DNA of 64,000 nucleotides. Origin: Treponemataceae bacterium. GTDB taxonomy: Bacteria > Spirochaetota > Spirochaetia > Treponematales > Rectinemataceae. Below the pieces are notes generated by a model. The model was not told the origin of the DNA. It was given only the letters and a program-made list of their open reading frames with translations, and ran no database searches. The translations under genes were made by a program, and so were the position numbers. Below are positions 30,149 through 46,547 of the stretch, in pieces (within the stretch, counting starts at the first letter, position 1; the number at the start of each line of letters is the position of its first letter). The DNA lies in the NCBI GenBank assembly GCA_963667725.2, contig CAXXHO010000003.1:1728001-1792000 (forward strand). Direction: 5' to 3'.

Positions 30149-30841
30149 ATGGAGCTTGAGAAGAGTGTCGATTTCGACTTTTTCATCCGATTTGCGGAGG
30201 GATTGCAGAAGTTCCTCGGCGATAAGTGCGAGATCGTCATCCATGATTTTCGAAAAGGTTTCGAGCACACGATTGTGTACATCATCAATGGGCAGCTTAG
30301 TGGACGTGAGGTGGGCGGCCCTCCCCGCGGAGGCATGATCTCCAATTCCGGGAAGGACATAGAACCTTTCAAGGAGAGCAGGATCTACTTCTATAATGGC
30401 ACCAACGAGTCCAAGGGGCAGATATTCAAATCCTGCACCACCCTTATATGCGACGCCAACAGGAAGATCATTGGGTCGGTCTGCCTCAATCTCGAAATGT
30501 CCGATTTCATACTGGCGCAGAACGCGTTACAGAATTTTGTCCGCTACAACAATCCAGACATCTCCACGCTCAAGGAGGAGGATGTAGCTTTCGAGAATGT
30601 GGACGACGTGATGCGCTATTATATGGAACAATGCGAACAGGTCGTTGGCAAGCCGATGTCACTGATGAGCAAGAAGGAGAAGATAAAGGCGTTGGAGTAT
30701 CTCGACAGCAAGGGCGTCTTTAAGATCACGAAAGCCAGCGTGCTTCTTTGCCAAGCCTTCCATGTATCGAAATTCACGCTCTATAGCTACCTGGAAGAGG
30801 CGAAAGGTCTTCGGGAACCACCTGATCTGGAAAATTTGTAG
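30149..30841 (+). CDS. YheO/DauR-like PAS-HTH transcriptional regulator
   Basis: CEIVIHDF...I.NG.LSGR.VGGP...IIGSVCLN; C-terminal KIKALEYLDSKGVF...VSKFTLYSYL. Confidence 0.88.
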   Translation: MELEKSVDFDFFIRFAEGLQKFLGDKCEIVIHDFRKGFEHTIVYIINGQLSGREVGGPPRGGMISNSGKDIEPFKESRIYFYNGTNESKGQIFKSCTTLICDANRKIIGSVCLNLEMSDFILAQNALQNFVRYNNPDISTLKEEDVAFENVDDVMRYYMEQCEQVVGKPMSLMSKKEKIKALEYLDSKGVFKITKASVLLCQAFHVSKFTLYSYLEEAKGLREPPDLENL

Positions 30842-30970
30842 GTTTGAATACCAGCGTATAACGGGTTCTGACAATCGTCAGGACCCGTTTTTTTTACCTT
30901 TCCCCACTATTGATATGATCGGGGACAAAGGTGAGACGCAATTTTTTTGCATATATAATTAAAAAAGTTA

Positions 30971-30999
30971 TTGCCAGATTCGAGAAGTGCATCTATACT
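30971..30999 (+). promoter_or_regulatory. sigma70-type promoter of the catabolic cluster
   Basis: TTGCCA-17nt-TATACT in an AT-rich spacer, followed by the palindrome TTAGT-ATG-ACTAA (31017-31029). Confidence 0.55.
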
Positions 31000-31211
31000 C
31001 TCAATAAAACATACAGTTAGTATGACTAAATTACTGAATGTATGATTAGGAGAAACATCAATGCCCTTAAAGAGCGCCTCGGCATAAACCGTGTCATACC
31101 TGCTCCAGGGGCTCGATAAAAAGGGTTGTAACAAATATCCGTCGCTAACTCGTCGTACGAGAGATCCTATAAGAAATTGTTCTGGGGCTAGACCTCAAAA
31201 AGGAGACAATT

Positions 31212-32777
31212 GTGGCTGAAACAGCGAACTCAATGCAAAAAAAAGAGTCGGGATTTGGTCGTTTCCTGCATGGCGTTGAAGTTGTTGGCAACAAATTGCC
31301 CGACACGGTAATTATCTTTATTGTGCTGGACATTGTGGTCGTATTGATTTCCTGGATGGGAAGTCTCTTCGGATGGTCCACGGTTCATCCGGGGACCGGC
31401 AAAGCAGTAAGCGTCTACAATCTTCTGAGCCCGGAAGGCCTGCAATATATGTTCACCAACATGTACCAGAACTTCTCCTCCTTCGCTCCGTTTTCCATCG
31501 CCATGCCGCTTTTCCTGGCGGTTGGTATTATGAATGTGTCGGGGTTGATGGAATCGCTCTTTGTCGGATTGGGATCAAAAGTGAAGCCCCAGCTGTTGAC
31601 GGTCATCATCATTTTCATTGGCGTAATGTCCAATCTTATGTCTGACGCAGGTTTTGCCATACTCCCCCCCTTGGCAGCAATGCTCTTCATGTCGGTAGGC
31701 CGCAATCCAATATTGGGAATGTGCTGCGCATACACCGCCTGCGGAGCCGGCATGGCCGCCAATCTGCTTATAGGCATTTCCGACGCGCGCATATCGGCCA
31801 CCTCTCAGGCGGCTGCTCAGATCCTCGATCCAGCCATGGTAGTCCTGCCGACCTGCAACTGGTACTTCATCGCGGCGGCAGCCATCGTCCTGACCATCGC
31901 GGCCGCTTGGGCAACCGATAAGTGGTTGGAACCCCGCATGCCCCGCACAGGTGATTGGAACAACGAGGAGTTTGGCGTCAAGAAAGTCGACCTTGCCTCG
32001 TATCACGCCACGCCCCTTCAGAAGAAAGGCATGGTTGCGGCAGGACTCTCTCTATTGATTCTCGCCGCAATCGTACTCATCGGCGTCTTGCCTTCGTGGG
32101 GATTTTTCCGGACCAAGGACGGGCCGTCAATTTTCGGCGCCCAAGCAACCCAACTAGGAGCGATTGTCACCGCCATAATCTTCTTTATCGGCGTTCCAGG
32201 CATCGTCTACGGCAAGGTTGTCGGGACGGTTCCCGACGGAAAGGCCCTCAGCTCGGCAATGGCCAGAGGCGTCACAGACATCGCCCCATTTATCGTCCTC
32301 TGCTTCTTCGCGGGCCAATTCACCGCATGGTTCGCTAAGAGCAACCTCGGCATCGTCTTCTCCATCAATGGCGCCAATTTCCTTCGCAATATTGGCTTAA
32401 GCGGGTTACCGCTCATGATATGCCTGATACTCCTGACTATAGTCCTTGATATTTTCCTTCCAAGCTCGAATGCGAAGTGGGCTATTCTGGCGCCGGTTCT
32501 CATACCGATGTTCATGTTGCTCGGCTACCACCCGGCAATGACACAGATGGTGTACCGCATAGGCGACTCGATCGTGAACTCGATCACGCCGCTGATGGCT
32601 TTCTTCGCCTTGCTGCTCGGCTTGGCCAAGCAATACGATAAAAAAGCGGGCATCGGAACCGTTATGTCGTTGTTGATGCCATATACCTTGATCTACGGAA
32701 TCGCCTGGACCCTTTTATTCGTTATCTGGTTCCTGTTCAAGCTCCCGCTTGGTCCTGGAGGCCCATTGTTCCTTTAA
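31212..32777 (+). CDS. AbgT-family transporter
   Basis: VE.VGNKLPD, NLLSPEGL, SDAG, GRNPILG, SSNAKWAILAP, YRIGDS..N.ITP, LPLGPG. Confidence 0.92.
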   Translation: MAETANSMQKKESGFGRFLHGVEVVGNKLPDTVIIFIVLDIVVVLISWMGSLFGWSTVHPGTGKAVSVYNLLSPEGLQYMFTNMYQNFSSFAPFSIAMPLFLAVGIMNVSGLMESLFVGLGSKVKPQLLTVIIIFIGVMSNLMSDAGFAILPPLAAMLFMSVGRNPILGMCCAYTACGAGMAANLLIGISDARISATSQAAAQILDPAMVVLPTCNWYFIAAAAIVLTIAAAWATDKWLEPRMPRTGDWNNEEFGVKKVDLASYHATPLQKKGMVAAGLSLLILAAIVLIGVLPSWGFFRTKDGPSIFGAQATQLGAIVTAIIFFIGVPGIVYGKVVGTVPDGKALSSAMARGVTDIAPFIVLCFFAGQFTAWFAKSNLGIVFSINGANFLRNIGLSGLPLMICLILLTIVLDIFLPSSNAKWAILAPVLIPMFMLLGYHPAMTQMVYRIGDSIVNSITPLMAFFALLLGLAKQYDKKAGIGTVMSLLMPYTLIYGIAWTLLFVIWFLFKLPLGPGGPLFL

Positions 32778-32851
32778 GCACGTATATAAAATTGGTTGGG
32801 CGGTTGCGAATCGCCGCCCGCAATGCCATTTCTTGGGAGAATAATGCAACC

Positions 32852-33973
32852 ATGAAGATCGAACGTATAGAATATATACCGGTGCGGATCGCGAAGCGTG
32901 GCGCCAAAAACGGCCTTGAGTGGAAGACGGCGCTGGGCAATAATCCCTACGGCGATGCCGTCATCGTCATTCTTCACGTCGAAGGTGGCAACTTCGGTCT
33001 GGGAGAGGTGTCGTCCATTTGGGACGGCGGCGCAGGCAACCTCGTCGCGGGGTTCGGGAAAAGGATAGCCGATTCGATAATCGGGCTGGATGTCTTCTCG
33101 GTCTCCGATGCGGTCGCCCGGATGGACAAGGCGGTGGTCTGGAGCAAAAACCCCCTCTGCCTGAAGGCCGGCATCGAGATGGCCATGTATGACCTGATCG
33201 GCAAGCTCAAGGAGATGCCGGTCTACCAGCTGCTCGGCGGCAAGCGCCGAGAGAGCGTCCCCCTTTCCCATTCGGTTTCGATGGGCACGGTCGAGGAACA
33301 GATCGTCCAAGTGACCGAGCATGTAGCCAGCGGTTTTAAGACGGTGAAGGTGAAGGTCGGCATCGATTTTGAGCGCGACCTGGCGGCTGTGCGCGCCATA
33401 CGCGAGCGATTCGGCCCCGAACTCGGCATCCGCGTGGACGCGAACATGGGATGGCGAGATCAGAAAATGCTTCTCAATGTCGCCTATCAGCTTTCAGCGT
33501 TAGGAGTGCTCTCGATCGAGCAGCCCTTCGCCCCCCACGAGCTTGATAAACTCGCATTTCTGCGCGAGCGCAGCCCGATTCCCGTCATGCTCGACGAGAG
33601 CGTATGGGATCCCGTGGATGCCTTGAAGGCGATCAAAGCCGGCGCGGGGGATATCTTCAATATTTATGTCAGCGAGTCCGGCGGGCTCAACAAAGCGATG
33701 CAGATAGCGAATCTTTGCGAGACGGCGGGAGTGGGCTTCTGCATCGGCAGCATGCCTGAATTCGGCATCGGGACCGCGGCTGAGCTTCACTTGGGCATCG
33801 CCGCGCCGCGCATCGATCATCCCAGCGACGTGATCGGCAATCTTTATTTCGAAGACGACGTCATAGTTGAGGTCCTGCCGGTAAAGGAAGGCTTCGCCTA
33901 TGCGGTCGATCGTCCGGGTCTCGGGGTCAGCCTCGATTGGGATAAGGTAGAGAAATACCGCACCGACAAATAA
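32852..33973 (+). CDS. Enolase-superfamily enzyme, MLE/dipeptide-epimerase subgroup
   Basis: DLIGK...PVYQLLGG, KVKVG, metal ligands RVDAN / IEQP / LDES, PGLGV. Confidence 0.88.
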   Translation: MKIERIEYIPVRIAKRGAKNGLEWKTALGNNPYGDAVIVILHVEGGNFGLGEVSSIWDGGAGNLVAGFGKRIADSIIGLDVFSVSDAVARMDKAVVWSKNPLCLKAGIEMAMYDLIGKLKEMPVYQLLGGKRRESVPLSHSVSMGTVEEQIVQVTEHVASGFKTVKVKVGIDFERDLAAVRAIRERFGPELGIRVDANMGWRDQKMLLNVAYQLSALGVLSIEQPFAPHELDKLAFLRERSPIPVMLDESVWDPVDALKAIKAGAGDIFNIYVSESGGLNKAMQIANLCETAGVGFCIGSMPEFGIGTAAELHLGIAAPRIDHPSDVIGNLYFEDDVIVEVLPVKEGFAYAVDRPGLGVSLDWDKVEKYRTDK

Positions 33974-34024: not shown

Positions 34025-34852
34025 TTGATCGGCAATGATTTTCCCAGCGAGATAGAGGCGCTCGACTTTCTCGATTTCTCCGTGAGCTTCGGACGCCCAC
34101 CCGTACCGTTCACCGGGGCTTGGGTGGACAAGGCGGGGCTGCTGGCCGAGATGAAACGCGTGGGTATCAGGCAGGCCGCTCCGTATCATATCCTGAGCAA
34201 ATCCTACGACGCGGACTACGGCAACAAGCTCATTCTCGAAGAGCTGAAAGACGCGCCCGAATTGATTCCGACATGGGCCGCCGTACCCAGCGAAGAGGGG
34301 ATGGGATGTTCACCCTGCGCCTTCGCTGACATGTTTGAAAAAAGCGGGGCGAAGGCTGTCAGGCTCTTCCCCTCATCGACAGGCAATCCCGCCATCGCCA
34401 CCCGATACGCTTTCGCCAAATGGTTCTATGGGGATTATCTGGAAGAACTGCAGAAGCGACAAATTCCCATTGTGCTCGAGTTTTCCCCTGGCCGGCGCGA
34501 TGAACCGGCTTGGGATAAACTCTGCGGCGTCGCCGGAGAATTCCCAACCCTGCCGATCGTGCTCTCCGACGGATTCCAGAGGACGACCTGGTCGCTCATA
34601 AAGATGATGCGCGCTTTTCCCAATCTCTATGTCCAAACCTCCGGCCTGGACGTGCACCGCCAGCTCGAATACATGGTGCAACAAGTGGGGCCGCGGCGTT
34701 TCATAGCGGGCTCCAAATTCCCCGTCTCCACCATGGGCACGATGGTGGGGCAGGTCCTTTTCTCCAACCTGCCGATCGAGCAAAAGAGACTGATCGCCGG
34801 CGGCAACGCGCGCCGGCTGATGAAGATCGCCTCGCTGAAAGGGGAGTGCTGA
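34025..34852 (+). CDS. Amidohydrolase_2-fold protein lacking the HxH metal motif
   Basis: TTG start; N-terminal FLDFSVSFG, AVRLFP, FPNLYV, FIAGSKFP, IAGGNARRL. Confidence 0.7.
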   Translation: MIGNDFPSEIEALDFLDFSVSFGRPPVPFTGAWVDKAGLLAEMKRVGIRQAAPYHILSKSYDADYGNKLILEELKDAPELIPTWAAVPSEEGMGCSPCAFADMFEKSGAKAVRLFPSSTGNPAIATRYAFAKWFYGDYLEELQKRQIPIVLEFSPGRRDEPAWDKLCGVAGEFPTLPIVLSDGFQRTTWSLIKMMRAFPNLYVQTSGLDVHRQLEYMVQQVGPRRFIAGSKFPVSTMGTMVGQVLFSNLPIEQKRLIAGGNARRLMKIASLKGEC

Positions 34853-34853: not shown

Positions 34854-35654
34854 ATGAGCGCCAACAAGACATATAGAATCATCGATTCCCACGCCCATAT
34901 GGGACCGGTCTGGAACTTCTATCTCCCGTATAACGACGAACAGGGGATGCTCGACAACATGGATCGGCTGGGCGTCGACACCGTGGTTTTCTCTTCCAAC
35001 CTGGCCGTGACCGCCGATGTGGAACGGGGCAACCGCTATACCCTGGAAGTCTGCCTGCGCCATCCCGGACGATACCTGGGCATGTACGCGGTGAACCCCA
35101 ACTATCCCGAAGTGGCGGCCAAAGAGATGGACAAATACTTTACCCATAAGGAAATCGTCGGCATCAAGATTCATCCAGAACTTTCAGGCGATTACCCGCT
35201 GAACGGGAAAAACTGCGCACCGATGTTCCGCTACGCGAGCGAGCGCAAGATTCCCATCCTGAGCCACACGTACTACGGCGGCGACAAGCTCAGCGTCTTC
35301 GAGGAGCTGGCGAGGGAATATCCCGACGCCCCGCTCATAATCGGCCACGGCGCCCTCGATCTCGGCACCGGCAAGGCGATCGATCTGTGCAATAAATACC
35401 CCAATCTCTATTACGACCTCTGCAGCCCTGTCAACAAACGCTATGGGGCGCTGCTGCTCGTCGACCGGGAACTGGATCCCGATAAAGCGCTCTATGGCAC
35501 TGACGTTCCGTGGAACGACCCGGCGGTCAGCCTGGGCTCGGTGCTTTTCAGCGGCGTCGCTCCCGAAAAGCTGCGCAAATGGTTCAGCGGCAACTTCCTG
35601 CGGCTCTACGCGAGGGCGGCGACAGCGCTCGACGGCGAATCCGCGCAACGGTGA
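34854..35654 (+). CDS. Amidohydrolase_2-family metallo-hydrolase
   Basis: IIDSHAH, GIKIHP, ILSH, IIGH, LYGTDVPW. Confidence 0.85.
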   Translation: MSANKTYRIIDSHAHMGPVWNFYLPYNDEQGMLDNMDRLGVDTVVFSSNLAVTADVERGNRYTLEVCLRHPGRYLGMYAVNPNYPEVAAKEMDKYFTHKEIVGIKIHPELSGDYPLNGKNCAPMFRYASERKIPILSHTYYGGDKLSVFEELAREYPDAPLIIGHGALDLGTGKAIDLCNKYPNLYYDLCSPVNKRYGALLLVDRELDPDKALYGTDVPWNDPAVSLGSVLFSGVAPEKLRKWFSGNFLRLYARAATALDGESAQR

Positions 35655-35712: not shown

Positions 35713-36792
35713 ATGAACTTTGATCGAAAGTCAGTCAAAGACGATTTTGTGGCGAGCATCGCGACCCTGTGCGGGACGCACGGCGCTTCCGGCTTCGAAG
35801 ACGAGATGGTCGAGCTGGTGAAAAACATGGTTCGGGGCTATGTCGATGAGACGAAGACCGACGTGATGAACAACCTCATCGCCTTCAAGAAAGGAAACGG
35901 CAAGATGAAGGTGATGGTCGTCGCCCACACGGACGAAATCGGCCTCATCGTCAAGAAAATCGACCAGAAGGGATTTCTCTGGTTCGACACCCTGGGAGGA
36001 ATCAGGCCTCAAGCCCTTTTCGGAAAGCATGTTGTAGTGAAAACGTCTTCCGGGCTGGTAGACGGCCTCGTAAATTATATAAAGCCCGGACGAGTGGACG
36101 CCATGGAGCAGATGCCCGATCTTCAGGATTTCTTCATCGATATCGGCGCGAAAAATCTGGCGGAAGCCGAGGAGATGGGGCTCGAGATCGGAAATTCGGT
36201 ATCCATCGATTATCCCGTCTATTTCCTCGGCAAAGACAAGAATCGCGTGGCGGGCAAGGCCCTCGACGACAGAGCATGCGTCTTTCAGCTCATCGAGCTC
36301 ATGAAACTGCTCAAAGACGATGAAGACTGTCCCGATGTCTACGCCGTGTTCTCCTCCCAGGAAGAAGTGGGCTGCCGCGGCGCCAAGACCGCAGCCTATA
36401 CGATCGAGCCCGATGTGGCGATTTCACTGGACATCTCCATATCCAACGACATTCCCGACGTAGCCGAACGCAAGATCATCACCGCCCTCGACAAGGGCCC
36501 CGTCATCAAGGTCATGGACAGGTCGAAGACCACGTCGGTGGGCGTGCTTTCCGCGCCGAAAGTGGTGAGCGCGATGAAGGAAGCGGCGAAGGCGGCGGGC
36601 CTTTCCTATCAACTAGAGGTGTATTCGGCGGGGACGACGGACTCCGCCACGATGCACCTGGAGAGAGGCGGCATCGCCTCCGGAGGCGTATTGCTTCCCA
36701 CGCGTTATGTCCACAGCTATGAACTCGCGTCGGTAAATGACCTCGTCGATGGCGTCGAGCTTCTGTATCGCTATGTAAAGTCTTTGGCGTGA
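35713..36792 (+). CDS. M42-family (TET) aminopeptidase
   Basis: SGFE, AHTDEIG, KALDDR, QEEVGCRGA, GTTD, RYVHS. Confidence 0.9.
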   Translation: MNFDRKSVKDDFVASIATLCGTHGASGFEDEMVELVKNMVRGYVDETKTDVMNNLIAFKKGNGKMKVMVVAHTDEIGLIVKKIDQKGFLWFDTLGGIRPQALFGKHVVVKTSSGLVDGLVNYIKPGRVDAMEQMPDLQDFFIDIGAKNLAEAEEMGLEIGNSVSIDYPVYFLGKDKNRVAGKALDDRACVFQLIELMKLLKDDEDCPDVYAVFSSQEEVGCRGAKTAAYTIEPDVAISLDISISNDIPDVAERKIITALDKGPVIKVMDRSKTTSVGVLSAPKVVSAMKEAAKAAGLSYQLEVYSAGTTDSATMHLERGGIASGGVLLPTRYVHSYELASVNDLVDGVELLYRYVKSLA

Positions 36793-37322
36793 AAGAAGCG
36801 TGTATGGAAAAGAAAACCGATATGGACATCTACGAAAGGCTCAAGCAACTTTTGGCCGAATTGCCGCCGCACACTTCTCCGAATGGAAGCTACACGCTGA
36901 TGGCGGAGTTCGGCGGGCATTACTTGTATACCTCCGGAACCGGCTGCGCCTCGGGAGGAAAGCCCCTCGTCGTGGGCAGATTGGGAGAAGAAGTCTCGAT
37001 CGCGGACGGGCAGCGCGCGGCGCGTCAGTGCGTGCTGAACGTACTCTCCAACGCGAACGCCTACCTCGGGGACCTGAATCGCATAGGTCGCGTGGTCAAG
37101 ACCACGGTCTTCATCGCCTGCGGGGAAGCCTTTGGCGACCAGAGCGTCGTGGCCGAGGGCGCTTCCGAACTTCTCTGCGCGCTGTTCGGCGCGGAGGGAC
37201 GGGGGGTGCGCAGCGCTATCGGCGTGAGTGCCCTTCCAAAAAACCAAGCGGTGGAAATCGAGATGATTTTCGAGTTGAAGGAAATCGGAAAGGAGCGACC
37301 GAATGCTAATCCACTGGAATGA
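36789..37322 (+). CDS. RidA/YjgF-family imine/enamine deaminase
   Basis: LYTSG, GRLG, VAEGASELL..LFG..G..VRSAIG...LP....VEIE (catalytic Arg retained). Confidence 0.85.
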   Translation: MKEACMEKKTDMDIYERLKQLLAELPPHTSPNGSYTLMAEFGGHYLYTSGTGCASGGKPLVVGRLGEEVSIADGQRAARQCVLNVLSNANAYLGDLNRIGRVVKTTVFIACGEAFGDQSVVAEGASELLCALFGAEGRGVRSAIGVSALPKNQAVEIEMIFELKEIGKERPNANPLE

Positions 37323-38064
37323 GTTGAGCAAGGATCAGTTCAAGCGGTACCGCGATACGGCGACCGTCGCCATCAACTTCGCCTCCACCGAACAGCACTC
37401 GAGACACCTCCCGGTAGGCACCGACGCGATTCTCGGCAAGGCGGTACTGGAAGAGGCGGCCCGGCTGGCCGCTTCCCCCATGCTCGTCCTGCCGCAGGCC
37501 TGTTATGGCTATTCTCCCCACCACCGTTTCGCGCCGGGCTATGTCACCATCTCGCAGAACACGCTGATTTCCCACGCTCGGGACATATGCAAAAGCGTCT
37601 ACGAGAATGGTTTCAAAAGGATGTTCCTTGTCAATTCCCATGGCGGCAACCAGGTCTATCTCTCCGCCGTCATCAACGAGATCGGCGAGGAATATGGCGA
37701 GAAGTTTTCCCTCATGGAACTGCGGTACTGGGATGTAGCGGGCCCTCGCATCATGGAGATACGCGATTCGGCGTTGGGCGGCACAGGACACGCCTGCGAA
37801 TTCGAAACCTCGATGATGATGCATCTGCGGCCCGACCTGGTGCAGGCGGATAAAATCGCCGAATGCCCTCCGGTGCCAGGGGACCCATGGTTCCAGATGG
37901 ACCTGCTGGGGTTCAAGAAATACCTCAAGTTCTCCAATTTCAATATCTACAACCCCGACGGCCACGTCGGGCAGCCGCATCTGGCGACAGCCGAAAAAGG
38001 CAGGCTGTTCTTTGAGGCGGTCACCGAGGAACTGGCGAAATTCTTTGACTATTTCCATGTCTGA
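37303..38064 (+). CDS. Creatininase-family amidohydrolase
   Basis: STEQHSRHLPVGTD, YGYSPHH, NSHGGN, GHACEFETS, G..G.P.LATAEKG. Confidence 0.9.
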   Translation: MLIHWNELSKDQFKRYRDTATVAINFASTEQHSRHLPVGTDAILGKAVLEEAARLAASPMLVLPQACYGYSPHHRFAPGYVTISQNTLISHARDICKSVYENGFKRMFLVNSHGGNQVYLSAVINEIGEEYGEKFSLMELRYWDVAGPRIMEIRDSALGGTGHACEFETSMMMHLRPDLVQADKIAECPPVPGDPWFQMDLLGFKKYLKFSNFNIYNPDGHVGQPHLATAEKGRLFFEAVTEELAKFFDYFHV

Positions 38065-38299: not shown

Positions 38300-39442
38300 A
38301 TGGCAGAACAGCAAGTAAAGCTTTTACAGGGAAACGAAGCATGCGCGATGGCGGCGCTCGACGCCGGGGTGCGGTTTTTCGCCGGATACCCCATCACTCC
38401 AGCGACGGAAATCGCCGAGATTCTCGCGAAGGAATTGCCTAAGCTGGGCGGCATTTTCATACAGATGGAAGACGAAATCGCCAGCATGGGGGCCATCATC
38501 GGCGCCTCCATCGGCGGCGTGAAAAGCCTCACCGCGACGAGCGGTCCCGGTTTCACGCTGATGCAGGAGAACTTGGGATACGCGGCGATGGTGCAGGTGC
38601 CCTGCGTCATCGTGGACGTCCAGCGCGGAGGGCCCAGCACGGGAATGCCCACCCTTCCGTCCCAAATGGATGTGATGCAGGCCCGCTGGGGAACGCACGG
38701 CGACCACCCGATCGTCGTCCTCTGCCCCTCGACCGTGTACGAGTACTACATCTTGACGATCAAGGCCATCAACTTTTCCGAAATGCTGAGAACGCCGGTC
38801 ATCCTTCTGGCCGACGCGATCGTGGGACATCTGCGCGAGAAGGTGATTATCCCCGATAGTTCGGAAATCGAACTGGTCGAACGGAAGCGAGCCGCCCTGC
38901 CGGCAAAGGACTTCTTGCCATTCAAGCCGGATGATGACGATGTGCCGCCCTTCATGCCCTATGGCATCGGTTACCGGTATCACATGACCAGCAACAACTA
39001 CGATGAGGGCGGATACCCCGCCACCAACGATTCGCAGGTAGCGGTCAAACTGCTCACCCGTCTGCATCGCAAGGTCGAAAAGCGCCGTGGCGAAATAGTC
39101 ATGACGGAAGAAATCATGATGGACGACGCCGAAATAGCGCTGTTCGCCTATGGCTGCACTGCCCGCTCGGCGCGCAGCGCGGTCGAGACGGCACGCCGAC
39201 AGGGCATAAAGCTGGGCCTGATAAAGGCTCTCACGCTCTGGCCCTTCCCGCGGGAAGTAGTGGAAAAATACGGGGACAAAGTAAAAGCGATCATCGTCGC
39301 CGAAATGAACATGGGGCAGCTTGTCGGCGAAGTGGAGCGCGCGCTGAAAGACAAAAAGGCGGCCGTGCGCCAGGTGAACAGGTTTGACGGGAAAATGATA
39401 ACGCCCGACCAGATTCTCGATGCCGTAAAAGAGGTGAGGTAA
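38300..39442 (+). CDS. 2-oxoacid:ferredoxin oxidoreductase alpha subunit (KorA-like)
   Basis: GYPITPATE, QMEDEIAS, TATSGPG, QRGGPSTGMPT. Confidence 0.93.
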   Translation: MAEQQVKLLQGNEACAMAALDAGVRFFAGYPITPATEIAEILAKELPKLGGIFIQMEDEIASMGAIIGASIGGVKSLTATSGPGFTLMQENLGYAAMVQVPCVIVDVQRGGPSTGMPTLPSQMDVMQARWGTHGDHPIVVLCPSTVYEYYILTIKAINFSEMLRTPVILLADAIVGHLREKVIIPDSSEIELVERKRAALPAKDFLPFKPDDDDVPPFMPYGIGYRYHMTSNNYDEGGYPATNDSQVAVKLLTRLHRKVEKRRGEIVMTEEIMMDDAEIALFAYGCTARSARSAVETARRQGIKLGLIKALTLWPFPREVVEKYGDKVKAIIVAEMNMGQLVGEVERALKDKKAAVRQVNRFDGKMITPDQILDAVKEVR

Positions 39443-40261
39443 ATGTCAGCACATGTTCAGGATTATCTGAGAACGAACAAGATGCCTCATATTTGGTGCC
39501 CCGGATGCGGTACTGGCATCGTGCTCGGGGCGGTGGTGAGGGCTATCGCCACTATGGGATACAAGCGCGACGAGGTCATGGTCATCACCGGGATCGGATG
39601 CTCGGCGAGGACCAACGCCATCATCGATTTCAATACCTTCCAGACAACCCACGGCAGGGCTCTCAGCTTTGCCACCGGATTCAAGCTCGCCAGGCCCGAA
39701 ATGAAGGTAATCGTGATTACCGGCGATGGCGACGGCGCCGGAATAGGGGGAAATCACCTGATTCAGACCTGCCGCCGGAATATCGACATCACGACGATAC
39801 TGATCAACAACAGCATCTATGGCATGACGGGCGGCCAGTATTCCCCGCTGACCCCGATGGGGAAATACGCCACGACCTCGCCCTATGGAATGATGGAGCA
39901 ATCTTTCGATGTCTGCAAGCTCGCCGAAGGCGCCGGGGCGAGCTATGTGGCCAGAAGCACAGCATACCACGTGACGCTGCTGGAACAGCTCATCACCAAG
40001 GCGATGGCGCACGAAGGGTTTTCCTTTGTGGAAGCCGTGTCCCAGTGCCCGATCGGCTTCGGGCGCCGCAACAAGATGAAAACGCCCACCGCGATGCTCG
40101 AGTGGCAACGCGACAATGCCGTGAACGTAAAGGCGGCCGCCGCGATGAGCCCCGAAGCGCTGGAGGGCAAGTTTACGATAGGCGAGTTCGTGAACAAAAA
40201 CGTTCCCGAATTGGTGAAGGCATACGCGGAGCTGAATAAAAACTGCGGCGCGAGAGGATAG
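39443..40261 (+). CDS. 2-oxoacid:ferredoxin oxidoreductase beta subunit (KorB-like)
   Basis: WCPGCG, GIGC, HGRA, GDGD...IGGNH, NNSIYGMTGGQ.SP (TPP motif). Confidence 0.93.
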   Translation: MSAHVQDYLRTNKMPHIWCPGCGTGIVLGAVVRAIATMGYKRDEVMVITGIGCSARTNAIIDFNTFQTTHGRALSFATGFKLARPEMKVIVITGDGDGAGIGGNHLIQTCRRNIDITTILINNSIYGMTGGQYSPLTPMGKYATTSPYGMMEQSFDVCKLAEGAGASYVARSTAYHVTLLEQLITKAMAHEGFSFVEAVSQCPIGFGRRNKMKTPTAMLEWQRDNAVNVKAAAAMSPEALEGKFTIGEFVNKNVPELVKAYAELNKNCGARG

Positions 40262-40265: not shown

Positions 40266-40802
40266 ATGGAGCGAAAAGAAATAGTAATAAGCGGCTCGGG
40301 CGGTCAGGGCGTCGTTCTGGGCGGGATTATCCTGGCCGAAGCCGCCGCGATCTACGACGACCTCAATGCCACGCATAATCAATCGTATGGACCCGAAGCG
40401 AGAGGCGGAGCCAGCAAGTCAGAAGTGATTATAAGCGAAGGCGCGATTCATTTCCCCGAAATCGAAAACCCCGATATCCTCGTGGCGCTGACTCAGGAAG
40501 CGATCAGGAAGTATGGGAATACCATAAAAACCCAAGGAATACTCATCGTGGATTCCAAGGTCAAGGTGGATGAAAATCTCAAAGAAAGGGCGAAAACCTT
40601 CAGCCTCCCGATAGTGGAAACGGCGATCAACAAGGTTGGCAATGAGGTCACGGTCAACATGGTAACGTTGGGCGCTCTCGTCGCCATCACCAAGATCGTA
40701 AGCAGGGAAGCTATGGAGAAGGCGGTGCTCAATCGGATTCCAAAAGGGACGGAAGAGCTAAACAGGAAAGCATTGGCGGAAGGTTTCGCGCTGGCGGAAT
40801 AA
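40266..40802 (+). CDS. 2-oxoacid:ferredoxin oxidoreductase gamma subunit
   Basis: SGSGGQGV, QSYGPEARGG, NMV.LG, N.KA..EG. Confidence 0.92.
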   Translation: MERKEIVISGSGGQGVVLGGIILAEAAAIYDDLNATHNQSYGPEARGGASKSEVIISEGAIHFPEIENPDILVALTQEAIRKYGNTIKTQGILIVDSKVKVDENLKERAKTFSLPIVETAINKVGNEVTVNMVTLGALVAITKIVSREAMEKAVLNRIPKGTEELNRKALAEGFALAE

Positions 40803-40842: not shown

Positions 40843-42279
40843 ATGGCAGTCAAGACAAAGGCCGAATACATCGAATCGTTGAGAAAATTGAAACCAACGG
40901 TCTATATGTTCGGCGAGAGGGTCGAGAATTTTGTGGACAATCCCAGAATCAGGGCGGGGATCGAGGCGACGGGGGAAACCTATGCGGTCGCCGAAAGCCC
41001 CGAACATCGCGATTCGATGATAACGAAGAGCAGCCTGATCGGGGAGGACATCAATCGCTTCACTCTGCCTCCCGGATCGCGGGAAGACTTGGTGGCGAGA
41101 GTGAAAAACAACAGGATGCTCGGCGGCAGGGTCGGGACTTGCTTCCAGCGCTGCACTGGCCTGGACTGCATCAGCGCCCTTTCCATCGTCACCTACAACA
41201 TCGACCAAAAGTATAAAACTCAGTATAACGCCAGGTTTCTGGAATTCCTGAAATATGTCCAGAAAAACGATCTAACCTGCAACGCCGGCGTGACAGACGT
41301 CAAGGGCGATCGTTCGCTGGGGCCCTTCGAGCAGGCGGATAAGGACCAGTATTTGCGCGTGGTCGAAGAAAAGGAGGACGGCATCGTCGTGCGCGGAGCC
41401 AAGGCGCATCAGACCGGCTCCCTCTCTTCGCATGAGATCATCGTGCTGCCGACGCGCGCGATGAAAAAAGAAGACAAGGACTACGCCATCGCTTTCGCGC
41501 TTCCCGTGGATACGCCCGGAATCATCCACGTCGTCGGAAGGTCCACGCTGGACATGCGCGAGCTTCAGGGCTGCGATCGAGGGAATATAAAATACTCCAA
41601 ATATTGCCCCACGGTGATTTTCAACGATGTGTTCGTCCCCTGGAGCCGGGTGTTCATGTACGGCGAGACGGAATTCGCCGGAGAGCTGGTGATGCGCTTC
41701 TCCTCATTCCACAGGCAGAGCCATGGCGGCTGCAAGGCGGGGAAGATCGACTGCATGATCGGCGCCGCCATGAACATGATGGAATACAACGGCACGCAGA
41801 AAGTGAGTCACCTCCGCGAGAAAATCATCGACATGATCCACAGGGCGGAAACCCTGTACGGGTGCAGCATCGCCGCCTCCTATGAGGGGGATCAACAAGC
41901 CTCCGGCACGTATTTCATAGATCCCGTCCTCGCGAACGCCTCCAAGCTGCACGAGGGGAAGGAGATGGCCGAAGTCGGAAGGCTCCTGATCGATATAGCC
42001 GGCGGCTTCGCCTGCGACTTGCCTTCCGACAAGGACTTCGAAAATCCCGAGATCGGCCCACTGCTGAAGAAGTATATGAAGGGCTCCGAGAGCGTTTCGG
42101 CCGAAGATCGCATCAAGATGCTGCGATTGGTCGAAAAGTTGACTCAGGAGAGCGCCGACACCGTGTCGGATATACATGGCGGAGGTTCGCCGGAAGCGCA
42201 TAGGATAACGATAATGCGCGAGTCCGATGTGGAAGGCAAGAAAAAGCTGAGCAAAAGGCTCGCCGGGATAGAGAGCTAA
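40843..42279 (+). CDS. 4-hydroxybutyryl-CoA dehydratase (AbfD)-family FAD/[4Fe-4S] enzyme, divergent active site
   Basis: CFQRC, TDVKGDRS, GAKAHQTG, HRQSHGGCK, DIAGG, HGGGSP. Confidence 0.88.
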   Translation: MAVKTKAEYIESLRKLKPTVYMFGERVENFVDNPRIRAGIEATGETYAVAESPEHRDSMITKSSLIGEDINRFTLPPGSREDLVARVKNNRMLGGRVGTCFQRCTGLDCISALSIVTYNIDQKYKTQYNARFLEFLKYVQKNDLTCNAGVTDVKGDRSLGPFEQADKDQYLRVVEEKEDGIVVRGAKAHQTGSLSSHEIIVLPTRAMKKEDKDYAIAFALPVDTPGIIHVVGRSTLDMRELQGCDRGNIKYSKYCPTVIFNDVFVPWSRVFMYGETEFAGELVMRFSSFHRQSHGGCKAGKIDCMIGAAMNMMEYNGTQKVSHLREKIIDMIHRAETLYGCSIAASYEGDQQASGTYFIDPVLANASKLHEGKEMAEVGRLLIDIAGGFACDLPSDKDFENPEIGPLLKKYMKGSESVSAEDRIKMLRLVEKLTQESADTVSDIHGGGSPEAHRITIMRESDVEGKKKLSKRLAGIES

Positions 42280-42308
42280 GTGGTTTAAAGAAACGAGGAG
42301 CTAAAGTC

Positions 42309-43490
42309 ATGAGGAATGTAGTCATCGTCAGCGCGGTGAGGACGGCGGGCGGGAGTTTTGGTGGCGCTTTCAAGAATCTCACGGCGGTGGATCTCGGGGC
42401 CGCTGTGGTCGGAGAATCGGTACGCAGGGCGGGAATAGCCCCGGAAGACGTTGGCCAGGTCATATTCGGCAATGGCTGGCAGGCGGGCGTCGGGCCGAAT
42501 CCGGCGAGGCTGTGTACGGTGAAGGGAGGGCTCCCTGTCAGCTGCCCCGCTTTTACGGTGAACCTGCGCTGTGCCTCAAGCCTGCGCGCTATCGAATTGG
42601 GTGCGCTGAGCATCGCCGCCGGCGAGGAAGATATAGTCCTGGCTGGCGGCACCGAGTCATCCACGCAGGTGCCCTTTATCATGCCCACGCTCCGGTGGGG
42701 GCAGCGCATGGGGGACGGCAAGGCCTGTGATGTGCTGCATAAGGATGGATTCATGTGCCAGCTGGCGGGGATGATGATGGGCAACACCGCCGAACTTCTC
42801 GTCGACAAGTATGGCATCTCCCGCCAGGAACAGGATCAGTTTTCCCTGGAAAGCCACCTGAAGGCGTTGAAAGCCATGGAGGGAGGCCTCTTTGACGAAG
42901 AAGTGCTGCCGATGACGATCCAGGAAAAGAAAGCCGTCAACGTGGTGAAGAGCGAAGAAATTCCCCGCGACGACATATCTCTCGAAAAGCTTGGAAAGCT
43001 GCCGCCCGTATTCCTTGAAAAGGGAACGGTGACGGCGGGGAACAGCTGCGCTCTGTGCGACGCTGCGTCGGCGGTGCTGCTGATGTCGGAAGAGAAGGCC
43101 AGGGAAAAGGGCCTCAAGCCGATGGCGGTCATACGTTCATATTCCTATGTGGCCCTCGACCCGAAATCCATGGGTTTGGGACCGGCCCTGGCCATACCGA
43201 AGGCGCTGAAGAAGGCGGGGCTCGCGTTGCGCGATATCGACTTGATCGAATTGAACGAAGCCTTTGCGGCACAGGTCATCGCCTGCGACCGGGAACTTAA
43301 GCTGGACAGGAGCAAGCTCAACGTGAACGGCGGCGCCATAGCTCTCGGGCATCCCGTGGGCGCTACCGGAGCCAAAATACTGACGACCCTTCTCTATGCT
43401 CTGAAAAACAGGGACAAGAAATTGGGCATGGTCAGCCTTTGCATAGGCGGCGGACAGGGCGTGGCCCTGATCGTCGAACGACTGAATTGA
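42309..43490 (+). CDS. Acetyl-CoA C-acyltransferase (thiolase)
   Basis: TVNLRCASS, NEAFAAQ, NGGAIALGHPVGATG, CIGGGQG. Confidence 0.95.
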   Translation: MRNVVIVSAVRTAGGSFGGAFKNLTAVDLGAAVVGESVRRAGIAPEDVGQVIFGNGWQAGVGPNPARLCTVKGGLPVSCPAFTVNLRCASSLRAIELGALSIAAGEEDIVLAGGTESSTQVPFIMPTLRWGQRMGDGKACDVLHKDGFMCQLAGMMMGNTAELLVDKYGISRQEQDQFSLESHLKALKAMEGGLFDEEVLPMTIQEKKAVNVVKSEEIPRDDISLEKLGKLPPVFLEKGTVTAGNSCALCDAASAVLLMSEEKAREKGLKPMAVIRSYSYVALDPKSMGLGPALAIPKALKKAGLALRDIDLIELNEAFAAQVIACDRELKLDRSKLNVNGGAIALGHPVGATGAKILTTLLYALKNRDKKLGMVSLCIGGGQGVALIVERLN

Positions 43491-43528: not shown

Positions 43529-44413
43529 ATGCGGACGATCTTTATTATCGGGGCCGGAACGATGGGACGGGGTATAGCCCAGGTCGCCGCCCAGGCGGAG
43601 AACGATGTCTATCTTTCCGATATGAGCTTGGATCTCGTAAAAAAGAATCTTGAAATTGTCAAAGCCGGCCTGGACAAGCAAATTGAAAAAGGAAAGATGA
43701 CCAAGGACGAAGCCGAAGGCATCATGGGGCGGATCCATATGGTCGAAAACCTGGATAAGGTCGAAAATGCCGATTTCGTCATCGAGGCCGTCCTGGAAGA
43801 TATCGCTTTAAAGCAAAACATCTTCAGGGAACTGGACGAAAAGACAAAGCCGGAAGCCATCCTGGCCACGAACACGACCTCCTGTTCCATCACGCAGATC
43901 GCCTCGGCGACAAAAGCCCCCGAGCGGGTCGTCGGGATGCATTTTTTCAACCCGCCGGCGATCATGAAACTCGTCGAAATCATGCCGGGCCTGCTCACTT
44001 CGAAAAGCGCTTTGGAGCGGACGAAAGAACTCGCGCTGAGCCTGGGCAAAGATCCCGTAGTCACCAAGACCGAGGGACCGGCGGGCGTCACGAGCCGGAT
44101 ATTGTCAGGCATGCTCAATGAGGCGGTGTGGGTGTTGCAGGAAGGCATCGCTTCCGTCGATGAGATCGACAAGGCGATGGTCCTGGGCTGCAACCACAAA
44201 ATTGGGCCGTTCGCCCTGATCGATCTCATCGGCGTGGATATTCATCTCGCGAAGACGCAGATGCTTTACAAGAAAACCGGCGACGCGCGGTACAGGCCCT
44301 GCTATCTTCTGGAACAGATGGTGACTGCCGGCCTCCTCGGGAAGAAGACCGGGGTGGGATTTTACGACTATTCCACGGATCCGGTTGAGCCGTCGGCGTT
44401 TTTTAAACGATGA
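43529..44413 (+). CDS. hbd: 3-hydroxyacyl-CoA dehydrogenase (Hbd-like)
   Basis: GAGTMGRGIA, IEAV.E, GMHFFNP, GPF.LID..G.D, G.LGKKTG.GFY. Confidence 0.9.
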   Translation: MRTIFIIGAGTMGRGIAQVAAQAENDVYLSDMSLDLVKKNLEIVKAGLDKQIEKGKMTKDEAEGIMGRIHMVENLDKVENADFVIEAVLEDIALKQNIFRELDEKTKPEAILATNTTSCSITQIASATKAPERVVGMHFFNPPAIMKLVEIMPGLLTSKSALERTKELALSLGKDPVVTKTEGPAGVTSRILSGMLNEAVWVLQEGIASVDEIDKAMVLGCNHKIGPFALIDLIGVDIHLAKTQMLYKKTGDARYRPCYLLEQMVTAGLLGKKTGVGFYDYSTDPVEPSAFFKR

Positions 44414-44446
44414 GCAAAAAATCCGCTATGAAGGCAGGCTGTAGAC

Positions 44447-45223
44447 ATGGATAACTATTTTTCCTATGAAAAAGCGGAGGGCGTCGGCCGTTTGATCATC
44501 GACAATCCGCCGATGAATGCCCTATGCGACGACATGGTGGAGGAACTGGATAAGATTCTCGCGACCCTTGAGCGTGATGGCGAACTGAAGGCGCTCGTCA
44601 TCACTGGCGCCGGCGGGAAAGCCTTTATGGCTGGCGCCGATATACGCGAGTTGGGCGAAAGGGATTTTATCCAGGGCCGCGCGCAGACCCAACGACGCCA
44701 GGCGGTCTACAACCGGATCGCCGATTTCCGCGCGCCCACGATAGCGGCGGTAAATGGCTATGCCCTGGGCGCGGGGCTGGAACTCGCCCTGTCTTGCAGC
44801 ATCCGGGTCGCCTCTGAAAACGCCAAGTTCGGCGCCCCGGAAATCAATCTGGGGATAATTCCCGGCGATGGGGCGACGCAGCGTCTTCCCAGGATCATCG
44901 GATTGGGAAGAGCCATGCACATGATTCTTACGTCGGAGATGATAACGGCCGATGAAGCCCTGCAGTATGGCCTCGTCACGAAGCTCTTCCCTCTGGATGA
45001 GTTCGCGGAAGGTGTAAACGCGATGGCGCGGAAGCTCGCGAAAAAGGCTCCATTGGCGTTGATGTATGCCAAGGAAGCCGTAAATAGATCCTTCGATGCC
45101 GCCCTGTCGGTCGGCTTGACCATGGAATCTTATCTGCACGCGTTGGCCTGCGCGAGCGAGGACAAGGAAGAAGGCGTAAAGGCCTTTCTCGAAAAGCGGG
45201 AACCCGCGTTCAAGGGAAAGTGA
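44447..45223 (+). CDS. crt: Enoyl-CoA hydratase (crotonase family)
   Basis: AFMAGADI, AVNGYALGAGLELA, PEINLGIIPG, AFLEKR.P.F.G; both catalytic Glu present. Confidence 0.88.
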   Translation: MDNYFSYEKAEGVGRLIIDNPPMNALCDDMVEELDKILATLERDGELKALVITGAGGKAFMAGADIRELGERDFIQGRAQTQRRQAVYNRIADFRAPTIAAVNGYALGAGLELALSCSIRVASENAKFGAPEINLGIIPGDGATQRLPRIIGLGRAMHMILTSEMITADEALQYGLVTKLFPLDEFAEGVNAMARKLAKKAPLALMYAKEAVNRSFDAALSVGLTMESYLHALACASEDKEEGVKAFLEKREPAFKGK

Positions 45224-45254
45224 ATCCCGCGGTGGCGACAGAAATGGAGGGATC

Positions 45255-46547
45255 ATGTTCGAATGGAAAGGTGAGACCCAGGCTGAGCTACCCAGGATTT
45301 GCGCCGTGGAGCAGCGGTTTGATACTTCCGGCATCGATGTCCGGGAAGGTATCCGCGCCGAACTGGCGAAGCCGGAGATCAAGAAGCTGCTGATTCCGGG
45401 GCTGAAGGCGGCGGTCGCCGTCGGAAGCCGCGGCATAGGCGAAATCGACATCATCGTGCGGACCATTGTCGACGAGCTCAAGAAAAGCGGTCTGACCGTT
45501 TTCATCGTCCCGTCGATGGGGAGCCATGGCGGCGCCACGGCCGAGGGGCAAATCGAATACCTGGCAGGTTATGGAATAACCGAAGAGTCGATGGGCGTTC
45601 CCATCCGATCTTCAATGGAGGTCGTCGAACTTGGGGAAGTGGAGCCGGGTGTCAATGTCTTCTTCGACAGGATCGCCTTTGAAGAAGCCGATTTGATCAT
45701 TCCCATCAATCGCGTCAAATGCCACACCGGTTTCAAGGGGCCGGTCGAGAGCGGACTCTACAAAATGCTGGTGATAGGCATGGGCAACCATATCGGCGCC
45801 TCGCGCATCCATGCCTTGGGATTCCCTCGCTTCAGGGAGCTGATTCCCAAGACCGGAGAGTTCATTCTCGGCAAGGTTCCCGCCGTCCAGTTCGGCATCG
45901 CGATTGTCGAGAATGCCCAGGATCTTCCATCCATCATTGAGGCTGTTCCCGCGAAGGAATTTAAGACGCGAGAACCGGAACTCCTGGAATTGTCGCGACT
46001 ACTGATGCCTCGATTGAATTTTTCCAACATCGACCTATTGGTCATCGGCGAATTGGGCAAGAATATCTCGGGAGCGGGGCTCGACCCCAACGTGACCGGT
46101 CGCTTTTGGATGTCTCACATGGAAGATGGCCCCCTGATCTGTAACAGGATAGTCCTGCTCGACCTGACTCCGGAATCCCACGGGAACGCCATGGGGGTGG
46201 GCATGGCGGACGCGATTAGCAGAAGATTGTTGGATAAAATCGATTTCAACGCCACTTACACGAACGCGATCACCGCGGGGAGAATCGAGAAAGCCCGCGT
46301 TCCTATGGTCATGAAGGACGACAGGGACACGATCAAGATCGCGCTCCAAGCCATCGGATTGGCTCCAGGGCAAAAGCCGCGGATTGTAATCATTAAAAAC
46401 ACGTTGGAACTGGAACAAATCCATGTTTCTGAAGGGTTGATGGAGGAGGTTAAGGTTAATCCCAACCTGGTGATATTAGGTTATCCTCGAGAAATGCAGT
46501 TTGATGAAGGTGGAAACCTGATTCTAGATTTTCAGCCATTACACTAA
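45255..46547 (+). CDS. LarA-superfamily (DUF2088) putative racemase/epimerase
   Basis: VGSRGI, PSMGSHGGATAEGQ, NRVKCHT.F, GKNISGAGLDPNV.GR. Confidence 0.75.
   Translation: MFEWKGETQAELPRICAVEQRFDTSGIDVREGIRAELAKPEIKKLLIPGLKAAVAVGSRGIGEIDIIVRTIVDELKKSGLTVFIVPSMGSHGGATAEGQIEYLAGYGITEESMGVPIRSSMEVVELGEVEPGVNVFFDRIAFEEADLIIPINRVKCHTGFKGPVESGLYKMLVIGMGNHIGASRIHALGFPRFRELIPKTGEFILGKVPAVQFGIAIVENAQDLPSIIEAVPAKEFKTREPELLELSRLLMPRLNFSNIDLLVIGELGKNISGAGLDPNVTGRFWMSHMEDGPLICNRIVLLDLTPESHGNAMGVGMADAISRRLLDKIDFNATYTNAITAGRIEKARVPMVMKDDRDTIKIALQAIGLAPGQKPRIVIIKNTLELEQIHVSEGLMEEVKVNPNLVILGYPREMQFDEGGNLILDFQPLH

Follow-up and report, generated by a model that had tools for sequence, protein, structure and literature searches.

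The 64,000-nt window analysed here lies on contig CAXXHO010000003.1 of a Treponemataceae bacterium, whose genome (G000, 97% complete) carries at window positions 30149..46547 a cluster of 17 reading frames, all on the plus strand, including a gene for a variant of the dehydratase AbfD. Coordinates are positions in this window unless a genome or locus is named; L numbers denote homologous loci or contigs and G numbers the genomes compared. The first frame encodes a YheO/DauR-like regulator with PAS_6 and HTH_22 family matches (30149..30841) and is followed, after 370 bp, by 16 co-oriented genes running from abgT to larA with intergenic gaps of -20 to 71 bp. The gene list, orientation and tight spacing given by an original prediction, which had been made from the sequence alone, agree with our family matches, and the AT-rich spacers that it described at both borders correspond to a drop in GC content to 0.47 (30001-31000) and 0.53 (46001-47000) from about 0.58 in the surroundings. 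Between yheO and abgT a terminator-like hairpin (30860..30889, 13 pairs and a T run) and a promoter-like site (TTGCCA-17-TATACT, 30971..30999) were recognised on the plus strand by consensus only; the totals of such matches are not above those in shuffled sequence. Because of the hairpin behind yheO and the promoter-like site before abgT, the arrangement suggests that the 16 genes form one unit separate from the regulator gene, which likely has a transcript of its own. Family searches of the cluster proteins found no acyl-CoA dehydrogenase, electron-transferring flavoprotein (ETF), CoA transferase, ligase, aminotransferase or amino-acid dehydrogenase, as had been predicted. The gene order from abgT to larA is kept in L001 and in L023 (another genus, 71-86% identity), with yheO also present in the fetched flanks, and its conservation in a different genus rules out a chance arrangement or an artefact. 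No publication was found on the cluster, on 4-hydroxyglutaryl-CoA or on the combination of enolase, creatininase, Rid and AbgT in a literature search that was thin on subscription journals and may have missed work of the Buckel group. Judged from its genes, from which its reactions are also deduced, the cluster is a real, modular and apparently undescribed catabolic unit, as originally proposed.

The AbfD variant (40843..42279) aligns over its full length with AbfD 1u8v, to which its predicted model has a TM score of 0.92, and shares about 46-50% identity with the solved AbfD proteins (1u8v, 6vjr). The HpaB-type fold and the ligands of the [4Fe-4S] cluster (C99, C103, C299 and H292 in AbfD; C100, C104, C297 and H290 in the variant) are kept, and the fold is related to that of acyl-CoA dehydrogenases. 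A preprint (bioRxiv 2020.02.05.935528) reports that T190, E257, Y296 and E455 are needed for 4-hydroxybutyryl-CoA dehydration. Of these four residues the variant retains T190 only (T191), with E257 replaced by C255, Y296 by H294 and E455 by D443. The changes extend over the whole clade (E257 to Cys, Y296 to His, E455 to Asp or, in one subclade, Asn), and a new invariant Lys (K253), two residues ahead of the lost Glu, was present in 27 of 27 aligned clade members. In the phylogenetic tree the variant clade is split from seven canonical AbfD rows with a support of 100; the window variant clusters with proteins named as Bacillota. Residue changes and the separate clade together rule out identity with canonical AbfD. 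By its sequence, the locus appears to follow the pattern of a C4 elimination route of the AbfD kind; its enzyme, however, is not a strict member of the AbfD family.

The window protein shares 99% identity with its counterpart in L001, a locus of a Rectinemataceae bin. Of the 401 spirochaete genomes, only four, G000 included, carry the variant at E ≤ 1e-170, the remaining matches having 56% identity or far less; at the same threshold the clade was detected in 30 of 301 Desulfobacterota genomes. In another Bacillota class the variant occurs in two of 210 genomes, in one of them on a 3.6-kb contig. Cultured carriers are Thermanaerosceptrum fracticalcis (WP_034423693.1) and Syntrophobacter fumaroxidans (WP_011699939.1), and existing annotations name members of the clade AbfD or HpaB. 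Kim et al. reportedly described in 2015 a Syntrophus homologue of AbfD without key residues, which may belong to the variant clade. A further divergent AbfD-like group (36-39% identity) with other residues at the same sites was observed in L047:10001-11413, G253, G243, G376, G208, G150 and G364.

Directly upstream of the variant gene lie the genes for the delta (2x[4Fe-4S], 38104..38295), alpha (38300..39442), beta (39443..40261) and gamma (40266..40802) subunits of a 2-oxoacid:ferredoxin oxidoreductase (OFOR), delta and gamma being assigned by family match. The alpha subunit passed a general model (NF006412, 546 bits, cut-off 411), and the models specific for 2-oxoglutarate failed for alpha (394 against a cut-off of 579) and beta (311 against 364). 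The closest solved relative of the beta subunit is a 2-oxoglutarate enzyme (8ys5), and the subunit groups with the housekeeping copy of the genome. The window OFOR is a second copy, 49-58% identical to that of a separate operon of G000 comprising OFOR, mutase, epimerase and Mmd genes. The Arg following GIGCSx (GIGCSAR in the window beta subunit), as in 2-oxoglutarate enzymes, is common to the window OFOR, L093, L096 and the housekeeping copy, and we take it to bind the distal carboxylate of the substrate.

The 7-kb neighbourhoods of 75 motif-defined variant loci, taken from L003-L054 and L174-L207, were compared; L001, L002 and metagenome loci were excluded, L177, L047, L052 and L054 were missed by the open reading frame caller or the motif, and some of the 75 are near-copies. 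A SucCD-like ligase neighboured the variant in 33 loci and an OFOR in 27; both occurred together in none and neither in 15, among which four loci are shorter than 3.3 kb and L029 breaks off within a ligase gene. Read from this gene context, the numbers say that the acyl-CoA of the variant would be supplied either from a free acid (ligase) or from a 2-oxoacid one carbon longer (OFOR). Since the two partners never coincide and a CoA transferase (family III) is present in only two of the 27 OFOR-type loci, the earlier proposal that the OFOR product feeds the variant is supported. A 2-hydroxyacid enzyme (D-specific dehydrogenase, Ldh_2, LhgO-like, LUD and LarA22 proteins were counted) is encoded within 7 kb in 10 of the 33 ligase loci and in 17 of the 27 OFOR loci. 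We infer that 2-hydroxyglutarate is the simplest acid to unite three features: it resembles succinate, it is a 2-hydroxyacid, and its 5-CoA ester is a 4-hydroxyacyl-CoA. With CoA on C5 it matches the geometry of AbfD as well as a ligase of the succinate type and the enzymes for 2-hydroxyacids. A thiolase gene was found within 7 kb of the variant in L023 only. In L215:5367-14588 a 61% identical variant is preceded by genes for 5-oxoprolinase (PxpBCA), for a putative hydro-lyase, for two SdhA-like proteins and for a protein of 331 aa that no NCBIfam model matches. In L178:5504-6846, L038, L176, L183 and L192 the variant is followed by a cupin, a 290-aa protein (no Pfam or NCBIfam match), an old-yellow-enzyme-like flavoenzyme and a TRAP transporter.

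The upper part of the cluster starts with an AbgT-family importer (31212..32777, family match) and the gene for an enzyme of the enolase superfamily (32852..33973), which was assigned to the MLE subgroup by comparison of residues and structure models. The enzyme keeps the strand-2 motif K167-x-K169 and the metal ligands D197, E224 and D249 (numbering from 32849), and the Lys of strand 6 is replaced by Tyr273. All 21 aligned close members and all 67 distant loci have the Tyr motif; the clade thus lacks the second Lys required by the MLE racemases and epimerases AEE, NSAR and DgcA. All curated models scored far below their cut-offs, including the one for cis-3-hydroxy-L-proline dehydratase (NF043002, 137 bits, cut-off 500). 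Top sequence matches are dipeptide epimerase and N-succinyl racemase, the predicted fold is closest to muconate cycloisomerases, with all top fold matches at a non-discriminating 24-28% identity, and ESM Atlas returned generic MLE clusters only. Because of the single Lys base, the Rid protein with its Arg and the lack of a dehydrogenase, we favour beta-elimination to an enamine over racemisation. The Tyr-type clade is a second unassigned enzyme family beside the AbfD variant, with Caproicibacterium sp. BJN0003 (WP_266162138.1) as cultured carrier; enolase matches in G469, G470 and G472 turned out to be ordinary epimerase-like genes in which the Tyr motif is missing. The neighbourhoods of the 67 distant Tyr-type enolases (L102-L168) contain polar amino-acid ABC transporters and, in eight cases, creatininase, and do not name a substrate; 30 of these genes directly precede eukaryote-type hisA, often after rsmD. 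L142, L143, L148, L163, L166 and L168 combine the enolase with an ectoine-type ABC transporter, creatininase, M24 hydrolase, Asp/Glu-racemase-like, DUF3830 and AtzA-like proteins in what is probably an aerobic catabolic cluster.

Two further genes encode the remaining core functions of the upper part. The protein encoded at 36804..37322, predicted as RidA, belongs to the Rid family and has the catalytic Arg motif, but it is not RidA proper; with 27 bits for the RidA model TIGR00004 (cut-off 106) and 3d01, PA0814 and ACIAD3089 as closest solved relatives it is Rid1-like. The overlapping gene at 37303..38064 encodes an amidohydrolase of the creatininase family with the family Pfam match and metal motifs, scoring 114 bits for creatininase proper (TIGR04448, cut-off 235). 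Three other genes are accessory. Both predicted amidohydrolase-fold proteins match Amidohydro_2, but the first, Amh1 (34025..34852), lacks the metal ligands including HxH, and H13, H15, H138, H165 and D217 are present in the second, the metallo-hydrolase Amh2 (34854..35654). A model of the Amh1-Amh2 complex scored 0.89 against 0.00 for the best control, the runs sharing at least 86% of contacts at a partner pLDDT of at least 88; the mark used was attained by 116 of 157 solved pairs and by two of 215 mismatched pairs. From this model Amh1 is a probable non-catalytic partner of Amh2, and likeness to solved homodimers may account for the score, both chains being paralogous barrels. The M42 peptidase (35713..36792) is restricted to the spirochaete copies, and an S9 peptidase takes its place in L098.

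Lack of co-conservation of the upper and lower halves was one of the outcomes that the original prediction had named as refuting it, and this outcome applies in part. The halves were found joined only within one spirochaete family, the enolase being present in four of 69 family genomes and four of 251 genomes of the order (G000 included in each), and elsewhere they travel separately. Among the best 80 metagenome loci examined for the enolase, 13 have at least 56% identity, and nine of these (L091-L099) are without the spirochaete lower half. As far as their sequence extends, these contigs keep abgT, amh1/amh2, rid and the creatininase gene, except for L099, which has only enolase, rid, creatininase and yheO together with a Tct transporter, and L092, which has amh2 only of the amidohydrolase pair and a Dpp-like transporter. 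A yheO homologue stands beside the upper module in L093, L094, L096, L098 and L099, and none of 399 scored Clostridia genomes (an even sample; two not scored) carries the module. Most of abgT, together with amh1, amh2 and the M42 gene, is cleanly deleted in both L002 and L090, the identical breakpoints making an assembly error in L002 unlikely, and in L002 a YfcC-like transporter, encoded after larA, replaces AbgT. Also in L002, an ABC exporter block that lies upstream of yheO in the window (24399-29765) is missing and the cluster directly follows rpsP, and an IS630-like remnant stands before dus. On gene content, the core of the upper module is the enolase, the Rid1-like and the creatininase-like protein, and the cluster is a mosaic, with an upper half that recurs in low-GC metagenome contigs, mostly with an OFOR as neighbour, and an AbfD-like gene from a separate clade.

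An OFOR (42-61% identical to the window OFOR) adjoins the upper module in L093, L096 and L098, and none was found in the 15.7 kb of L094. In L098 the module runs on into genes for GntR, GctA and GctB, an activator of the HgdC type, a pair of HGD-D subunits and the OFOR, with glutamate-dehydrogenase-like and 2-hydroxyacid-dehydrogenase genes lying upstream; its GctA matches the glutaconate CoA-transferase of Acidaminococcus (1poi) with E 5e-145. L093 carries GctAB (GctA 61% identical to that of L098), the OFOR and a 2-hydroxyacid dehydrogenase. Because GctAB and Hgd genes adjoin these modules and glutaconate, glutarate, (R)-2-hydroxyglutarate, propenoate and propionate are listed as Gct substrates in PMC8085960, the product of the upper half would feed glutarate-level diacid chemistry. 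Just behind the upper module of L094 (8913-14264), genes for AbgT, a DoeB/EutE-like deacylase, a threonine-synthase-like pyridoxal-phosphate enzyme, a creatininase-like protein and Rid look like a parallel unmask-and-eliminate design with a pyridoxal-phosphate enzyme instead of the enolase.

Downstream of the variant follow genes for a thiolase (42309..43490), an Hbd-like 3-hydroxyacyl-CoA dehydrogenase (43529..44413, family match) and an enoyl-CoA hydratase of the crotonase type with both catalytic Glu residues (44447..45223), which all score below the cut-offs of the nearest named models; thiolase and crotonase are the only copies found in G000. The last gene (45255..46547) encodes the predicted LarA homologue, a member of group 22 of the LarA superfamily (LarA22; NF052515, 499 bits, cut-off 400). 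PMC7583248 lists this group as of unknown function. A second LarA-family gene of G000 (C5:1166868-1168280) lies, by our reading of the sequences, beside ETF genes and an LctD-like oxidase. Searches of G000 gave no match for GctAB or SucCD and none for an acyl-CoA dehydrogenase (PF00441), the lack of this dehydrogenase being the reason why butyrate formation was rejected, and HGD-D, the Hgd-type dehydratase, was found in none of the four spirochaete carriers. D-2-hydroxyacid dehydrogenases are present in G000. SucD, 4HbD and Cat2, which accompany canonical AbfD, were not seen in the cluster, SucD and 4HbD not having been searched with models of their own. Elsewhere in the genome, G000:C3:411906-424548 carries genes read as lysine fermentation genes (kdd, aminotransferase, kce, kamA, aminomutase, CoA transferase). 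An N-acyl-D-amino-acid deacylase-like gene is followed, at G000:C3:314744-317544, by genes for DAO/BFD and Pyr_redox proteins that share 60-64% identity with variant neighbours of ligase-type loci.

As the substrate fermented by the operon we propose an amino-dicarboxylic acid that is N-blocked, cyclic or part of a peptide. The compound would be imported by AbgT and its peptide or acyl group stripped by the deletable M42 peptidase and Amh1/Amh2 pair; the creatininase-like enzyme might open an amide or ring, and the one-Lys enolase would beta-eliminate to an enamine from which the Rid1-like protein frees ammonia. The original suggestion of an unmasking module with a 2-oxoacid as end product is supported as an interpretation, and this product would be a C6 2-oxo-diacid formed with no redox enzyme required, 5-hydroxy-2-oxoadipate being the best candidate. 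From this presumed substrate the OFOR, whose family chemistry is established, would yield 4-hydroxyglutaryl-CoA (2-hydroxyglutarate with CoA on C5), CO2 and reduced ferredoxin. In a new reaction the FAD/[4Fe-4S] variant would strip the C4 hydroxyl to give glutaconyl-CoA, with Lys253 holding the extra carboxylate. The weakest step is the next one, in which CO2 might be lost via the variant, in the manner of glutaryl-CoA dehydrogenases that decarboxylate, or once 3-oxoglutaryl-CoA is reached. Crotonase, Hbd and thiolase would then produce two acetyl-CoA and NADH, and LarA22 would invert the distal 2-hydroxyacid centre. A diacid rather than a C5 monoacid is indicated by the Arg of the OFOR, by GctAB and Hgd beside the upper half and by the succinyl-CoA-ligase homologue as the other partner of the variant, and for these reasons the 5-amino- and 5-hydroxy-2-oxovalerate named by the original prediction are not supported. 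Because Hgd is absent from all four spirochaete carriers and GctAB was not found in G000, the variant would stand where Gct and Hgd stand; Klees and Buckel are said to have found in 1991 that Gct can form the 2-hydroxyglutaryl 5-CoA isomer. On balance, the OFOR product is somewhat more probably than otherwise a glutaryl-level diacyl-CoA consumed by the variant. The complete route from 5-hydroxy-2-oxoadipate through 4-hydroxyglutaryl-CoA, next glutaconyl-CoA and then crotonyl-CoA to two acetyl-CoA is put forward tentatively, at less than even chances. More doubtful is the widest claim, that the variant is a new radical, possibly decarboxylating 4-hydroxyglutaryl-CoA dehydratase that leads from 2-hydroxyglutarate to glutaconyl- or crotonyl-CoA without Gct, Hgd and the ATP-driven activator, works in some 10% of Desulfobacterota, partnered by either a SucCD-like ligase or an OFOR devoted to it, and in the present operon closes a redox-neutral route that is new, includes a new enolase lyase of the Tyr type and serves a C6 amino-diacid not so far recognised in anoxic habitats.

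Several observations weigh against this route. We know of no natural source of 5-hydroxy-2-oxoadipate, and our searches found no literature naming it. The variant-partner OFORs of Desulfobacterota (20 loci) form a clade of their own with Trp in place of the Arg, at odds with a plain diacid site. Searches of G000 revealed no glutaconyl-CoA decarboxylase, the sole carboxyltransferase found being MmdA-like, and by its two Glu residues the crotonase looks like a plain hydratase. G000 encodes a Cat2-like CoA transferase elsewhere (C3:1721980) and 46 of the 69 family genomes have one, so that an acyl-CoA could come from outside the operon. In the predicted model the loop of Lys253 has low pLDDT immediately ahead of this residue. 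The LhgO-like neighbours score 273 for type 2 glycerol-3-phosphate oxidase and 234 for LhgO, both below the cut-off. Ligase and OFOR contexts track the tree (three label changes, three groups) and include near-copies, so their mutual exclusivity reflects few events. LarC was found in none of the four spirochaete carriers and LarB was not found in G000 (larE was not searched for), and LarC is present in two of two Desulfobacterota with LarA22; LarA in G000 possibly depends on cofactor scavenging or on a different cofactor.

The glutamate dehydrogenase homologue of L098 is what plain glutamate fermentation would need, and with its 2-hydroxyacid dehydrogenase, GctAB and HgdCAB this locus reads as a full pathway of that kind. 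The upper half might accordingly free glutamate, with the enolase as Lys/Tyr racemase of N-acyl-D-glutamate or a dipeptide; 2-oxoglutarate would arise via a dehydrogenase elsewhere, the OFOR would be a second 2-oxoglutarate enzyme, and the variant would act on 2-hydroxyglutaryl-5-CoA or 4-hydroxybutyryl-CoA from outside genes. The relationship of the OFOR beta subunit to 8ys5 and the housekeeping copy, the top matches of the enolase, the Cat2-like transferase and D-2-hydroxyacid dehydrogenases of G000 and the 5-oxoprolinase and hydro-lyase beside the L215 variant are consistent with this. We nevertheless consider it unlikely: the second catalytic Lys of the racemases is Tyr in the enolase, Rid belongs to the core, yet the spirochaete operon has no dehydrogenase or aminotransferase, no CoA transferase accompanies the variant in 25 of the 27 OFOR-type loci, the separate OFOR-mutase-Mmd operon already handles 2-oxoglutarate, and succinate is missing from the Gct substrates listed in PMC8085960. 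Improbable, too, is the originally predicted route from a 5-X-2-oxovalerate (X being OH, NH2, acylamino, guanidino or trimethylammonium) via 4-X-butyryl-CoA, from which the variant would eliminate X to give crotonyl-CoA. It requires no decarboxylation, crotonase, Hbd and thiolase fit directly, an uncharged tail would suit the Trp-type partner OFORs, BbuA is a precedent for elimination of a C4 amine (bioRxiv 2021.01.25.428109), the family of the YfcC-like transporter of L002 (249 bits, cut-off 500) is named for basic amino acids, and distant enolases stand beside ectoine-type ABC transporters. The Arg is retained in the window OFOR, however, true GctA orthologues adjoin the upper half, the other partner of the variant is a SucCD-like ligase, the new pocket-loop residue is Lys and not an acid, and LarA would be left without a substrate.

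Two further readings share a C6 product with our proposal. If this product were 2-oxoadipate, the OFOR would form glutaryl-CoA, and the variant, reverted to a dehydrogenase in place of glutaryl-CoA dehydrogenase, would release crotonyl-CoA and CO2. Every metabolite would be common, the OFOR and GctAB of L093 would yield glutarate plus acetyl-CoA, acyl-CoA dehydrogenases are altogether missing from G000, and the variant has lost the flavin proton relay E257 in a fold related to such dehydrogenases. This is quite improbable given that an acyl-CoA dehydrogenase neighbours the variant in only 3 of the 75 loci, with ETF genes solely beside it, that the minimal module of ligase, regulator and variant has no electron acceptor, and that LarA22 would have no job without a hydroxyacid. 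The C6 product could also be unsaturated (2-oxo-hexenedioate from a 2-aminomuconate-type enamine) or more hydroxylated (4,5-dihydroxy-2-oxoadipate from an amino-aldarate), the variant being a double-bond isomerase or making 3-oxoglutaryl-CoA, to be finished by thiolase or decarboxylation. The enolase model is nearest to muconate cycloisomerases, old-yellow-enzyme-like reductases flank nine variant loci, Table S1 of PMC7583248 links LarA22 to dihydroxyacid dehydratases, and 3-oxoglutaryl-CoA would remove the problem of the missing decarboxylase. The enolase fold matches do not discriminate at 24-28% identity. An isomerase alone would presumably not require strictly kept Fe-S ligands such as those of AbfD, and we regard this reading as highly improbable. 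Set aside by reasoning were hydroxyectoine, which would give a C3 acyl-CoA, malyl- and itaconyl-CoA, for which there is no AbfD-type chemistry or lyase, sulfo-acids, which mismatch GctAB, and gamma-glutamyl-CoA, which would cyclise.

AbfD serves as marker gene for 4-hydroxybutyrate and carbon-fixation routes. Since the variant clade is annotated as AbfD or HpaB but is without the needed residues, AbfD-based calls of these routes are likely wrong in many anaerobes that carry it. If true, the route through 4-hydroxyglutaryl-CoA would provide a third entry to glutaconyl-CoA and would matter for syntrophic aromatic degraders as well as for glutaconate and adipate routes.

With the AbfD enzymes of C. 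aminobutyricum (1u8v) and N. maritimus (6vjr) the variant shares the fold, the [4Fe-4S] ligands, T190 and K300, as well as crotonase, Hbd and thiolase downstream. It differs by the changes of E257, Y296 and E455, the new Lys, its separate clade and its partners, which are OFOR or a SucCD-like ligase instead of SucD, 4HbD and Cat2. The 2-hydroxyglutarate pathway (GctAB, HgdABC, GcdABCD) would have glutaconyl-CoA in common with the proposed route, and Gct and Hgd genes flank other upper modules, but Gct, Hgd and Gcd were not found in G000, and the dehydration proposed here concerns C4 in the 5-CoA ester, not C2 in the 1-CoA ester. The BbuABC pathway of gamma-butyrobetaine also involves a flavin-dependent C4 elimination from acyl-CoA to enoyl-CoA; BbuA, however, is acyl-CoA dehydrogenase-like, about 10% identical to AbfD and accompanied by CoA transferases, and no such protein is present in G000. 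cis-3-Hydroxy-L-proline dehydratase and the MLE epimerases AEE and NSAR resemble the enolase in the MLE fold, the KxK base and the three acidic metal ligands, from which it is set apart by the Tyr of strand 6 and the linkage to creatininase-like and Rid1-like genes. The lysine and tryptophan route from 2-oxoadipate via glutaryl-CoA to crotonyl-CoA likewise oxidises a 2-oxo-diacid before crotonase, Hbd and thiolase act, but employs a glutaryl-CoA dehydrogenase with ETF, in contrast to a cluster without these proteins in a genome without acyl-CoA dehydrogenase.

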